Shown: piece by piece, positions 17,884 through 63,427 of the stretch
How positions within the stretch are numbered: the first letter of the stretch is position 1
Layout: every line of letters starts with the position of its first letter
Assembly: GCA_964016885.1 (NCBI GenBank)
Contig: CAXHJY010001205.1
Location: 1-64,000 of the forward strand
Direction: 5' to 3'
Source: Eledone cirrhosa
Lineage: Eukaryota
DNA: 64,000 nucleotides
The notes under the pieces: model-generated
What the model was told of the DNA's origin: nothing
Database searches by the model: none
The model's input: the letters and a program-made list of their open reading frames with translations, nothing else
Program-made: the position numbers and the translations under genes

Positions 17884-18235
17884 ATACGATATATTAACAA
17901 ATGGAAACTATATTTATAAAACCATATTTATTTCATTATACATATTTCAAGGACACCAAGTTGAATTATGGTGTGCTTTCATCAGATAAAATATAATATA
18001 GATCAGTTTTATAAGTAAATATTGACATACCCTTAAAGAATGCGACCATTTCTGTTGGAAGCTCCCGGGAGCTTCCAACAGAAATGGTCGCATTCTTTAA
18101 GGGTATGTCAATATTTACTTATAAAACTGATCTATATTATATTTTATCTGATGAAAGCACACCATAATTTAACTTGGTGTCCTTGAAATAAATATGGTTT
18201 TATAAATATAGTTTCCATTTGTTAATATATCGTAT
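17884..18235. repeat. Near-perfect loopless palindrome (~350 bp) carrying hammerhead arms
   Basis: Centre CCC|GGG at 18066/18067; by eye the arms differ only by one substitution and a 14-bp deletion in the right arm. Confidence 0.95.
17929..17993 (-). ncRNA. Type-I minimal hammerhead ribozyme (family A)
   Basis: tattttat-CTGATGA-aagcacacca[taattcaact]tggtgtcctt-GAAA-tatgta-TA-atgaaata; stems I and II pair; stem III is self-complementary. Confidence 0.85.
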
Positions 18236-19486
18236 TTTTACTCCAATAATTTGTTGAGTGCTTTATATTAGTTATAAAAATATTTGCTTGTTGTATCCCA
18301 ACAATTTAAATAGAACTTCTACATATATATATATATATATTTATATATTTATATCATCATCATCATCATCATCATTTAACATCCACATTCCAGGTAGGAA
18401 TATATATATATAGCTACACTTATGAATATATATATATGTATATATATATATGAATATGTTTATATATATGGTATATATATAAACATATTCATATATATAC
18501 ATATATATACATTTCAGTACATGTGTTGGAAATGCCATGTATTCAAGACAAACTCCACTCCTGTTCTTTTCCAATATCTTTAACCAGGAATACTTGTCTC
18601 TCCCCCCACCCCCACCCCTTTCTCCCCCCACCACCCACCCACCCCTCTCTCTCTCTCTCTCTCTCTCTCTCTCTCTCTCTGCTCGGTTGCATTAAATGAA
18701 TAAAACATGCAAATAAAAGTGACTGGTAATATATACATTTACATATATATATATATATATATATATATACACATTCATATATATTCTATACTTACATACA
18801 TACTCGCATGTATAGGTAACTATACACATATACATACACACACACATATATATATATACATACATATATATACATACACACATATATATATATACATACA
18901 TACATATATATACATACACACATATATATATATATATATTTATATATATATATACATATATATACATATATGTATGTATACACATATGTATATATATATA
19001 TATATAAATATATATATACATATATACATATATGTATGTATACACATATGTATATATATATAAATATATATACATATATACATATATGTATGTATACACA
19101 TACGTATATATATATATATATATATATATATATATATATATACGTATGTGTATACATATATATATAAGAAGAGAAAAAAAGAGAGTACTATTGTATAGAA
19201 TTATCGACTAAATCTGAACCAGTCATTATTTCAAAGCTAAGATGTCCGCCTCCACCACCACCAGCTCTCTCTCTCTTCTCTCTCTCTCTCTCTACCTCTC
19301 TCTACTTGTAACAAAAAGCTGCCACTGACATGAGAACCTCTTAACAAGTGGTCTTTAATTGTAAACCTTCTTACATTGTTCGTTGGTTTCATGCAAAGTA
19401 AGATCTTGGTACAGTTATATTGAGCAATTTGTCGTGCAGCTTAGATCTATCTTTGTAAAGTTATTGCTTAATCTTAGCTTAAAATT

Positions 19487-20893
19487 GGTGGATTGGCAGT
19501 ATCGGTAGAGGGTCGGACGCCATGCTTTCCAGCATAGAGTTACGTCCCTTTACGATCCGAGTTCAAATCCCGCCTACGTTGACTTTGCCTTTCATCCTTA
19601 CGGGGTCGATAAAATAAAGTACCAGTAATGCACTGGGTAATTGCTGGTAATTGTGCCAAAAGTAGAAACAATTATTTAATGTTTACAGGCGGTGGATTGG
19701 CAGTATCGGTAGAGGGTCGGACGCCATGCTAGGGCGGTGGATTGGCAGTATCGGTAGAGGGTCGGACGCCATGCTAGGGCGGTGGATTGGCAGTATCGGT
19801 AGAGGGTCGGACGCCATGCTAGGGCGGTGGATTGGCAGTATCGGTAGAGGGTCGGACGCCATGCTAGGGCGGTGGATTGGCAGTATCGGTAGAGGGTCGG
19901 ACGCCATGCTAGGGCGGTGGATTGGCAGTATCGGTAGAGGGTCGGACGCCATGCTAGGGCGGTGGATTGGCAGTATCGGTAGAGGGTCGGACGCCATGCT
20001 AGGGCGGTGGATTGGCAGTATCGGTAGAGGGTCGGACGCCATGCTAGGGCGGTGGATTGGCAGTATCGGTAGAGGGTCGGACGCCATGCTAGGGCGGTGG
20101 ATTGGCAGTATCGGTAGAGGGTCGGACGCCATGCTAGGGCGGTGGATTGGCAGTATCGGTAGAGGGTCGGACGCCATGCTAGGGCGGTGGATTGGCAGTA
20201 TCGGTAGAGGGTCGGACGCCATGCTAGGGCGGTGGATTGGCAGTATCGGTAGAGGGTCGGACGCCATGCTTTCCAGCATAGAGTTACGTTCCTTTACGAT
20301 CTGAGTTCAAATCCCGCCGAGGTTGACTTTGCCTTTCATCCTTATGGGGTCGATAAAATAAAGTACCAGTAATGCACTGGGTAATTGCTGGTAATTGTGC
20401 CAAAAGTAGAAACAATTATTTAATGTTTACAGGCGGTGGATTGGCAGTATCGGTAGAGGGTCGGACGCCATGCTAGGGCGGTGGATTGGCAGTATCGGTA
20501 GAGGGTCGGACGCCATGCTAGGGCGGTGGATTGGCAGTATCGGTAGAGGGTCGGACGCCATGCTAGGGCGGTGGATTGGCAGTATCGGTAGAGGGTCGGA
20601 CGCCATGCTAGGGCGGTGGATTGGCAGTATCGGTAGAGGGTCGGACGCCATGCTAGGGCGGTGGATTGGCAGTATCGGTAGAGGGTCGGACGCCATGCTA
20701 GGGCGGTGGATTGGCAGTATCGGTAGAGGGTCAGACGCCATGCTTTCCAGCATAGAGTTACGTCCCTTTACGATCTGAGTTCAAATCCCGCCGAGGTTGA
20801 CTTTGCCTTTCATCCTTACAGGGTCGATAAAATAAAGTACCAGTAATGCACTGGGTAATTGCTGGCCTTGTGCCTAAAGTAGAAACAGTTATT
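19487..20893 (+). mobile_element. Three tandem SINE family 2 copies with the 45-bp 5' head amplified about 13 and 7 times
   Basis: Unit GGCGGTGGATTGGCAGTATCGGTAGAGGGTCGGACGCCATGCTAG; 20-bp direct repeat AGTTATTGCTTAATCTTAGC at 19459-19478 and 20887-20906. Confidence 0.9.
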
Positions 20894-21099
20894 GCTTAAT
20901 CTTAGCCAAACGAGGATTTCGCTTTAGTACAATGTTTGTGTGTGTTTGTGTGGGTTTGTATGTGTGTGTGTGGGGCAGTTTGTAAGTGTGGGTGTGTGTG
21001 TGTGTGTGTGGGGTGAACTAATGTGTGTGGGGGTGGGTGATTGGGTGTATGTGTGTGGGTTGTAAGTATTTCAGGCAGATAGGAGTGTTGTTCAGTATG

Positions 21100-21360
21100 T
21101 TGGATGGTGATGATGATGATGTTGATGGTGGTGGTGGTGGTGGTGGTGGTGGTGGTGGTGGTGGTGGTGGTGGTGGTGGGGATTATGATGATGATGGTGT
21201 TGGTGATGGTAGTGGTGGTGGTGGTGTTGGTGGTGGTGATGATGATGGTGGTAGTGTTGGTGGTGGTGGTGGCGGTGGCGGTGGTGTTGGCGGTGATGAT
21301 GGTGGTGGTGATGGTGATTATGATGATGATGGTGGTGTTGGTGGTGCTGGTGTTGGTGTA
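21100..21360. repeat. (GGT)/(GAT) microsatellite
   Basis: Directly visible. Confidence 0.95.
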
Positions 21361-61552: not shown

Positions 61553-61555
61553 TTG

Positions 61556-61684
61556 TATTTATTAAAATAACAGATTCAAGTTTACAGATTTAAGCAAAGA
61601 ATTGCTGCTTTCACCCAGAAGATCCCGTTAAGGATGAAAGCAGCAATTCTTTGCTTAAACTTTAATCTGCTATTTTAATAAATA
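61556..61684. repeat. Fold-back cassette with a degenerate hammerhead-like core
   Basis: 25-bp perfect inner inverted repeat (61589-61613 / 61635-61659) around CAGAAGA-tcccgttaaggat-GAAA. Confidence 0.7.
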
Positions 61685-63218
61685 TTCGCTCTACGGTTTC
61701 TTTATATATTTAATGTATATTTATCCTTGTCGAGCCCTCTTTGGATTTTAGTCTTCACATTTATTATTATTACTATATATATATATTAACTTATAAATAT
61801 AAATTAGCAAGAATCGTATTTCAGCTCAGGAATTAACGAAAATCAACGTCCGATATGTGTGGCAAGAGCTCGATGATTCATGTGAATCAGGGCTACAACA
61901 TACGTTAAGGGCCAAACACACTGAGATGATGGTTAAACAGATCATCCGCACAGCCAAAACAAATGACCAAGTAATTCGGGTCAAACAATAAAAATATATC
62001 TGTTGATAATTTACCCGGACCCTGGACTGATGGTAAAATCCAGTATTTGGTTTCTGCGACTCCAAAATCAGGTACTGTCCGCCTACATAAAGAATGTTGG
62101 GCTTCTGGTAAGATGATTGAACAAGGAAGCCGTGTTATCAACGGGTTTTTGCTCCAATTAACTTATATATATATATTCTGTAAAGATTTGAATTATTAAA
62201 TAACGCCAATGAAGTCATTCTTCTCTCTTTTGAAATATACCTCACTGCAACAAGGAATTTCCTTCACTTTCCACTATTTTTTTTTTTTTTCAGTCGATCG
62301 ACTTTCGTCAAATCGGACCGAGGAAACAATGTTTCCATTGGTCTTTCCAATTGCTAATACTATCTATCGGTCGCAACTCCAGGTAGAAGGAGCAACGTGA
62401 AATAAAGTGTCTTGCCCAAGAACACACCGCATCGCCACTTTCCACTATATATATATATATAGTATTAGTACATATTAAAAGTTTATTTATTATAACTATA
62501 TATATGTGTGTGTGCATATATATATATATAAATATATATCAAGTGCAGAAAAATAGACGTTAAATTGTGACGATGTTGATATATATGCATGTGATATATA
62601 TGCATGCATGTGTGTGTATATATATATATATATATATATAAGAATTATTTGAAGTTTATGTAAAGTGAACTTAGTATTTATGGTGATTCAGACAAGGGAA
62701 TTTGGCACCAAGTCATTTTAGTTCCTTTCACCATTGTTTAATCACCATACATTATAGATTGGAGGTTTTTTAACTTTCAACATGTGTGTGTGTGTGTATA
62801 AGTACACCTGTGTATGTGTATGTATGAGTATGTATGTGTATGTTTGTGGGGGGGGGGGGGTATGTGTTTATGTGTGTGTATGTGTATTTCTGTGTTCAAT
62901 GTTTAAACTTTTCACTTTCATAAATAATTTAATCTAAAAGTATACACACAAATATATATATATACACACACAAATATATATATACATACACACATATTTA
63001 TATGTTTCATACACACACATATTTATATTTTTCATACACACACAAGTATATATATACACACACACATATTTATATGTTTCATACACACATATATATATAC
63101 ACACACACACATATATATACACACCAAATTTATATATATACACACATACACACACACATATGTATATACACATACATATATATATAAATATATATATATA
63201 TAAATATATATATATATA

Positions 63219-63427
63219 TTACTTCAAAATATTAATAAATATAGACATTCATGTGATCAAATATATTTTATTATATATATTTCAGAGGCACTGACACTGT
63301 ATGTCAGGCATCAACTTATTTTATCTGATGAGGACGTACTGTTGAAATAGCTCAGTATCTCTGAAATATGTATAATAAAATATATTTGATCACATGAATG
63401 TCTATATTTATTAATATTTTGAAGTAA
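63219..63427. repeat. Fold-back cassette (arms ~70 bp) containing a hammerhead
   Basis: TTACTTCAAAATATTAAT...TTTCAGAG versus CTCTGAAA...ATTAATATTTTGAAGTAA. Confidence 0.92.
63317..63382 (+). ncRNA. Type-I minimal hammerhead ribozyme (family A)
   Basis: tattttat-CTGATGA-ggacgtactg[ttgaaatagct]cagtatctct-GAAA-tatgta-TA-ataaaata; perfect 8-bp stem I. Confidence 0.88.

Follow-up and report, generated by a model that had tools for sequence, protein, structure and literature searches.

A candidate variant of the Penelope-like hammerhead ribozyme with a conserved unpaired cytosine in stem II

Introduction

Hammerhead ribozymes of Penelope-like retrotransposons (Penelope-like elements, PLEs) have been described as carrying a palindromic stem III, cleaving as dimers and showing compensatory changes (PMC4209133, PMC6765202; here and below, papers are cited from the accessible parts of their texts). 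They cleave poorly alone and lack the usual tertiary contacts, and one of them needs the protein of its element (PMC4209133, PMC8557442, PMC11167929). Small PLE-associated hammerheads cleaving as dimers are, by its title, the subject of PMC5785218 (Lunse, Weinberg and Breaker). The only stem II mismatch described in the accessible text of this literature is a U-U at pair 1 (PMC3088659, PMC7229834, PMC6765202, PMC11167929, 10.64898/2026.07.22.740005). Here we analyze four predicted hammerheads in a contig of Eledone cirrhosa (CAXHJY010001205.1, assembly GCA_964016885.1); the whole stretch of 64,000 nt studied, positions 1 to 64,000 of the forward strand, is called the window. All four belong to a type whose stem II carries the motif 5′-C-R-3′/5′-Y-(C/U)-3′ three pairs above the core. 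The first base of this motif, C10.4 at stem II pair 4, faces a base with which it does not pair.

Hammerheads in the window

The original prediction had placed four motifs in the window; they lie where it put them, with the CUGAUGA/GAAA core intact in all four and with stem II arms paired save at pair 4. The stem II sequences that it listed were correct and their order was not, as the copies at 42819 and following had been assigned to the wrong stems. The predicted hammerheads are as follows.

17929..17993, minus strand: copy 1; core CUGAUGA 17985-17979; stem II 17978-17949, arms aagcacacca/tggtgtcctt; C10.4 (17975) faces C11.4 (17952); palindrome AUAUGUAU at 17945-17938; predicted cut after 17937.
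42819..42889, minus strand: copy 2; core 42881-42875; stem II 42874-42839, gaacgc../..gttttt; C10.4 (42871) faces U11.4 (42842); palindrome AUGCGCAU; predicted cut after 42827; C-A mismatch at stem I pair 3.
45161..45221, plus strand: copy 3; core 45169-45175; stem II 45176-45201, gagtgtacca/tggtaccctt; U10.4 (45179) faces C11.4 (45198); palindrome AUAUAUAU; predicted cut after 45213.
63317..63382, plus strand: copy 4; core 63325-63331; stem II 63332-63362, ggacgtactg/cagtatctct; C10.4 (63335) faces C11.4 (63359); palindrome AUAUGUAU; predicted cut after 63374.
18140..18195, plus strand: fifth, broken hammerhead, read from the sequence in the other arm of the inverted duplication around copy 1.

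The broken hammerhead retains the core and a C-C in stem II; its stem III and cut site were lost via a deletion between two GAAAT repeats. Stem III of the window copies is self-complementary, as had been claimed, over 8 nt (AU-RYRY-AU, counting A15.1 and U16.1) rather than the 6 nt listed earlier, and the predicted cleavage triplet is AUA. Of the 14 copies in the cluster of copy 3, 10 have C-C and three have U-C; judging from these sequences, copy 3 most likely had C-C and reached U-C by CpG-type decay. An Rfam search of the window at gathering or E-value thresholds detected no hammerhead.

Lineages were compared by means of 36 hand-picked representatives from one genome, among them the four window copies and one copy with a repaired pair 4. 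Like the pseudo-long-terminal-repeat (pLTR) hammerheads of PMC4209133, these motifs are of type I, with a long helix II and a palindromic helix III that implies dimer cleavage. Also shared are the pLTR location, inverted pairs, solo truncated copies and many families with compensatory changes. Unlike the PMC4209133 consensus, they have no extra base between positions 9 and 10.1, and the conserved G10.1-C11.1 of that consensus is replaced by A-U, G-U, G-C or U-U (G-C in 7/36). The accessible text of PMC4209133 gives no conserved stem II mismatch; in its Fig. S3, pair 4 is paired, by eye, in 54 of 56 rows, and the unpaired ones are single examples (Clonorchis 2, U-U; S. purpuratus 1, C-A).

The loop 1/loop 2 signature of the canonical extended hammerhead, a conserved loop 1 U paired to a 3′ A of loop 2, is absent, with position 1.7 varying among the representatives (U20, A9, C4, G3); unlike that type, every representative has a pyrimidine at 11.5, and stem II runs beyond 4 bp. 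Each window copy is a PLE end, solo or inverted, and none lies in a tandem array of ∼300-nt non-coding units, which sets them apart from non-long-terminal-repeat retrozymes. A palindromic stem III and a location in the pLTR or 3′ untranslated region (3′UTR) were both found, as in dimeric PLE hammerheads, and dimer cleavage is predicted.

Conservation of C10.4 across the genome

We searched a 3.0-Gb, (TA)n-rich animal genome with three disjoint patterns, which differ at the opening pairs of stem I and hardly constrain stem II. The patterns had 47,718 + 13,833 + 7,429 = 68,980 matches; the reversed controls had 0, 6 and 5. Since the strict pattern gave 47,718 exact matches and its reversed control none, the motif is not a product of chance. 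A base other than C stands at 10.4 in 2,244 + 515 + 386 = 3,145 matches, and C10.4 is kept in 65,835 of the 68,980 (95.4%). In the first set, it faces a pyrimidine in 45,011 of 47,718 matches (94.3%) and a purine in 463; in the second set, it faces G in 68 of 13,833. We inspected by eye 100 listed rows of each non-C or purine set and all 68 C-G rows: among the matches listed, each exception amounts to a single change or a deletion against the background of a known family. A small subfamily of the first set has C-A at pair 4.

Copy counts mostly mirror descent, and we therefore clustered by lineage, using 222 unselected distinct copies; we set aside 50 copies fetched as deviants, as well as two multi-copy clusters whose hammerheads are of an unrelated type. 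In the 20 multi-copy clusters, pair 4 is C-C in 17, C-U in two and C-A in one (tied with C-C). It is paired in 0/20; pairs 1-3 and 5-9 are paired in 16-20 of the 20. C10.4 is kept in all 20 lineages, its partner being C or U and rarely A, and G is the commonest partner in none. Among the 36 representatives, pair 4 is paired in one and the other stem II pairs in 28-35. Conservation in a larger alignment, which the original prediction had named as a first trial of its mismatch, was thus observed. Its rule of a pyrimidine-pyrimidine mismatch requires correction: what is fixed is an invariant C10.4 with a partner other than G.

By Fitch counting, 10.4 changes twice (each time in one copy only), whereas the remaining stem II positions average 7.1 changes (Poisson P ∼0.03). 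Positions 10.6 and 11.4 change eight times each, 11.4 mostly between C and U; 10.5 is a purine and 11.5 a pyrimidine in 36/36. Identity of the parent reverse transcriptases (RTs) between the deeper mismatch-bearing families is ∼41-56%, which argues for selection and not recent descent. Given that C10.4 is fixed across diverged lineages while its neighbours covary, it is very probably under purifying selection. In contigs from four runs (one study, at most two samples), one family has no variant of at least 5% at 10.4 or 11.4; as this is the case for most of its positions, we attach no weight to it.

Could the mismatch be a functionless accident inherited from one ancestral element? The data come from one genome, copies inside a lineage are not independent, and a change from C or U to G at 11.4 requires a transversion. 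On the other hand, only a transition separates C from U at 10.4, at a CpG in about one-third of the lineages, and U is commonest there in 0/20; single-copy repairs arise yet have founded no lineages. With the eight changes at each of 10.6 and 11.4 and the divergence of the parent proteins, neutral inheritance becomes very unlikely, and we regard it as already largely refuted.

Selection on RNA structure

The claim that the RNA structure is under selection was borne out among the 36 representatives by double changes in 16 of 18 pairs, including 6/6 stem I pairs and 7/8 stem II pairs. The covariation score is 0.656, compared with 0.296 for a shuffled control, which ignores relatedness, and at most 0.19 for slid alignments. 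Pairs 2, 3, 6 and 7 flip purine-pyrimidine order, and stem I is wholly different between lineages. The core (C3 U4 G5 A6 N7 G8 A9 ... G12 A13 A14 A15.1, U16.1, H17) is invariant in 36/36, the search pattern having preselected it. The palindrome changes by complementary steps, partly imposed by the RYRY pattern; its monomer fold has 0 kcal/mol and its self-duplex −2.2 to −10.5 kcal/mol. Folds of single copies often misform the base of stem II.

Stem II has 31 G-U cells but six A-C cells, and stem I has 11 and five; the stem II excess indicates that sense RNA is the folded strand. The selected structure might instead reside on the complementary DNA (cDNA) or antisense strand, where an invariant G would face G, A or T and be read during reverse transcription or integration; all three oppositions (G-G, G-A, G-T) can stack as non-canonical pairs. 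The G-U excess on the sense strand, where the hammerhead core also lies, led us to reject a cDNA-strand fold, a reading to which we give almost no credence.

Parent elements

The motifs are almost certainly type I PLE hammerheads from the pLTR/3′UTR ends of Penelope-like retrotransposons, which fit the Hydra clade. We examined 20 stretches around genome matches for parent elements, and several have long frames adjoining the motif. One of these (L031:3629-6094), open over 821 aa, contains RLRWT, HSDKT, CNCRIKNKC, CNLC and CLH as well as a GIY-YIG-type IYECK...YFGST. Its product (P0001) fits by eye the Hydra clade definition of PMC8557442, with RWT instead of RWK. The likeness to that clade extends to RW, DKT, CxCx5C, CxxC and CxH, no CCHH, a C-terminal GIY-YIG and (TA)n targets; (TA)n flanks were found both at the window copies and at the fetched elements. 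The C-terminal GIY-YIG nuclease of the Hydra-type protein is supported by a nuclease alignment; a Pfam scan of P0001 returned nothing.

The motif stands on both sides of the open reading frame (ORF), the pLTR arrangement, in six loci (L035, L039, L041, L044, L203 and L205). In tandem copies, one motif precedes the ORF by 200-250 nt and the other follows it at 0.9-1.6 kb; hammerheads are ∼3.3-4.1 kb apart, and these elements exceed the ‘generally <3 kb’ of PMC8557442. Hammerheads of PMC8557442 share the palindromic stem III with A15.1-U16.1 and often U at 11.1; unlike ours, all 26 Hydra rows of its File S2, by eye, end stem III in AC..GU, and the Hydra-1_oBim hammerhead listed there differs in sequence. 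Anolis Poseidon PAc (PMC11167929) likewise has a hammerhead near the element end and a tail with two alternative ends; it belongs to a different PLE clade, and a stem II mismatch goes unmentioned in the accessible part of that paper.

The window copies themselves are 250-490-nt 3′ fragments of four PLE families, with 80-92% identity to fetched relatives:

17884..18235: inverted duplication of a 5′-truncated PLE 3′ end around copy 1; two arms, 92% alike.
42776..43062, minus strand: 3′ fragment of a Hydra-type PLE family around copy 2, with the L031 element as full-length relative.
45025..45275, plus strand: PLE 3′ fragment with copy 3 inside, flanked by (TA)n tracts; 90.5% identical to L060.
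63217..63429: inverted repeat; immediately upstream of copy 4 lies a reversed duplicate of its 3′ half and tail.

The first of these has the usual inverted pLTR arrangement, and family homology extends to ∼18354. The second is 87% identical to L014/L048 and 80% to L031, the L031 match spanning 42663-42993 with flanking TA repeats included. A weak PLE RT remnant (E 7e-5) occurs at 3499-3645 on the minus strand of the window. In most lineages (loci L001-L255), the elements terminate in (TA)n at two distances past the cut site, ∼43-57 and 132-157 nt; the tail is ∼90-100 nt here and 30-40 nt in reports on other PLEs.

A nuclease tree, built with no named references, has an unresolved backbone and wrong hammerhead labels in several rows; with such a tree, we do not claim a single-clade origin of the mismatch families. 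Parent ORFs were not found for several rare lineages or for the abundant lineage with an AUC cleavage triplet (L195:1493-1576, L129:558-641, L173:1493-1577). According to PMC1636495, natural hammerheads essentially lack this triplet.

Possible roles of C10.4

Conserved G residues are confined to G5, G8 and G12 of the core, so C10.4 has no Watson-Crick partner outside it. A base-specific contact with stem I, one of two roles suggested by the original prediction, is not supported, given this lack and the variation of every stem I column. Pairing with stem III was rejected too, as AUAUAUAU has no G. With an invariant base and an opposite that is merely non-pairing, the site resembles a surface that another partner reads, and the variation of the partner (C, U or A) was counted toward a protein over an RNA partner. 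In addition, the Anolis PLE hammerhead cleaved only with PLE protein added (PMC11167929), and PLE hammerheads, slow in vitro, have been proposed to need factors (PMC4209133). The protein dependence of the Anolis hammerhead made us rank protein recognition first: by analogy, and with somewhat less than even confidence, we take the unpaired C10.4 to be a mark recognized by the RT-endonuclease protein that the element itself encodes.

The putative mechanism would run as follows. Single copies, without loop-loop contacts, would be slow on their own. Two hammerheads, from tandem pLTRs or from two RNAs, would join their AU-RYRY-AU palindromes as a shared stem III, and the joined dimer would cut after AUA. 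The 5′-C-R-3′/5′-Y-Y-3′ 1x1 loop, three pairs over the core, would serve as a grip on stem II for the protein, which would hold the active fold and/or select the element's own RNA. Lineages in which C10.4 is paired appear not to spread. It is conceivable, if rather doubtful, that a large Hydra-type subclade has evolved a dedicated handle of this kind: C10.4, unpaired in a C-Y loop away from the catalytic core, would be read sequence-specifically by the RT-endonuclease of the element, which would thereby activate or choose its ribozyme.

The C-Y loop may instead be a packing element made of RNA only, with stem II docking on the backbone or groove of stem I and a narrowed or kinked helix, or a flipped-out C, replacing the missing loop-loop contact. 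C10.4 is near the height at which helix II of the canonical type, 4 bp long, gives way to loop contacts (PMC4209133, PMC2632901), its distance to the core is fixed despite a widely varying loop II length, and 1.3 is a purine and 2.3 a pyrimidine in 36/36. However, stem I has no invariant base and no G to pair with C10.4, and it is just 4-5 bp long in several lineages. The C/U state of 11.4 covaries convincingly with no column; the best p is 0.004 out of ∼44 columns, uncorrected and confounded by descent. We consider packing unlikely, though a serious contender.

Another reading links C10.4 to the misfolding of single copies noted above: C10.4 and R10.5 would pair with core U4-G5, or destabilize stem II at its base of 3 bp, and keep the ribozyme off in the transcript as it is made until a dimer or chaperone frees it. 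Such auto-inhibition would account for both the fixed C and the neighbouring fixed purine; a C10.4-G5 pair is possible in 35/36 representatives, R10.5-U4 in 36/36 and an extension by U10.3-A6 in 18/36, and the often misfolded stem II base agrees with it. The proposed pairing is nevertheless only 2-3 bp, the core is invariant and so cannot lend covariation support, R10.5 is already explained by its stem pair, and pure weakening would not demand C. We judge auto-inhibition improbable. A slipped register with C10.4-G12 was rejected, as it fails at the next pair (1/36).

Several observations weigh against C10.4 as a protein mark, or against its generality. The mismatch characterizes a subset of Hydra-type families, mostly those with an AU-RYRY-AU stem III, plus one with AC-AUGU-GU; other hammerhead families of the same genome, U-U-based ones included, pair position 4. 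Fifteen metagenome loci include five, with a related nuclease, whose hammerheads have a well-paired long or Hydra-like stem II, and none of the five has the mismatch; loci L227-L235 are weak nuclease matches. In the Hydra table of File S2 (PMC8557442), a pair-4 mismatch is seen by eye in 0 of 26 rows. Repaired copies exist, with G10.4-C11.4 seen by eye in about one-fifth of the 100 listed non-C rows of the second set; three identical repaired copies (GGTGAC) lie within 12 kb, and repaired copies may thus have a limited spread. Some abundant lineages carry U-U or A-A at pair 1, and one carries A-A at pair 3, which indicates that stem II is not tightly optimized everywhere. As for the protein, PMC11167929 suggests binding to the RT initiation site and not to stem II, with an indirect aid to folding, and reports insertion in vitro with no need of ribozyme cleavage. 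Finally, the protein role was reached by exclusion and analogy, and the positive evidence comes from one genome and a hand-picked set.

Some further observations concern these families and exceptions. Pair 4 is fully paired in additional hammerhead families (L038:5223 and 5706, L035:3428, L202:1242, L201:5137, L113:1501), whose palindromes are ACCGAUCGGU, ACUAGU and ACUAAUUAGU. The AC-RYRY-GU pattern was noisy (704 matches against 536 in the control) and served only for finding examples. All 17 of 17 pattern matches in viral contigs lack stems and were dismissed as chance; a protein scan of the same contigs gave nothing. Extra core-adjacent stem II mismatches (U-U, G-C, A-A, C-C; or A-A at pair 1) occur in the amplified sublineages L175, L199, L211 and L217 and at L057:1747-1816. 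In one family, pair-4 repair by C-to-G is seemingly about as frequent as C-to-T, which suggests template-switch correction of a quasi-palindrome; we infer that repaired copies may arise by such correction.

Other repeats in the window

The following repeats were also observed.

26964-∼33300: tandem array with a 92-bp unit, 67 copies in register, 96-98% alike.
1698-2006, 23113-23430, 40474-40773, 47656-47979 and 60292-60617: family of short interspersed nuclear elements derived from a tRNA, 86-94% alike.
1522-1641, 40314-40390 and 60071-60186: short palindromic repeat, similar to miniature inverted-repeat transposable elements, with a central TCATCAG/CTGATGA inverted pair.
60605-61246 (plus strand) and 5548-6015 (minus strand): fragments that we take to resemble RTE-type long interspersed nuclear elements.

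Scans of the short palindromic repeat for hammerheads were negative.

Novelty and significance

We found no published description of a fixed unpaired stem II C in a literature coverage that excluded the PMC5785218 consensus and the papers' figures. PLE hammerheads, their palindromes and their compensatory changes are known; on the sequences compared here, the conserved C10.4 mismatch is a candidate for a new variant. A selected base outside the core, kept across deeply diverged lineages, points to a missing activating or recognition contact. It amounts to a one-base change that can be tested in many natural backgrounds, with the families that lack the mark as natural negative controls. If the protein handle is real, it would provide a defined ribozyme-protein interface in a retrotransposon; if the role of C10.4 is RNA packing, it would represent a new way of holding stems I and II together.

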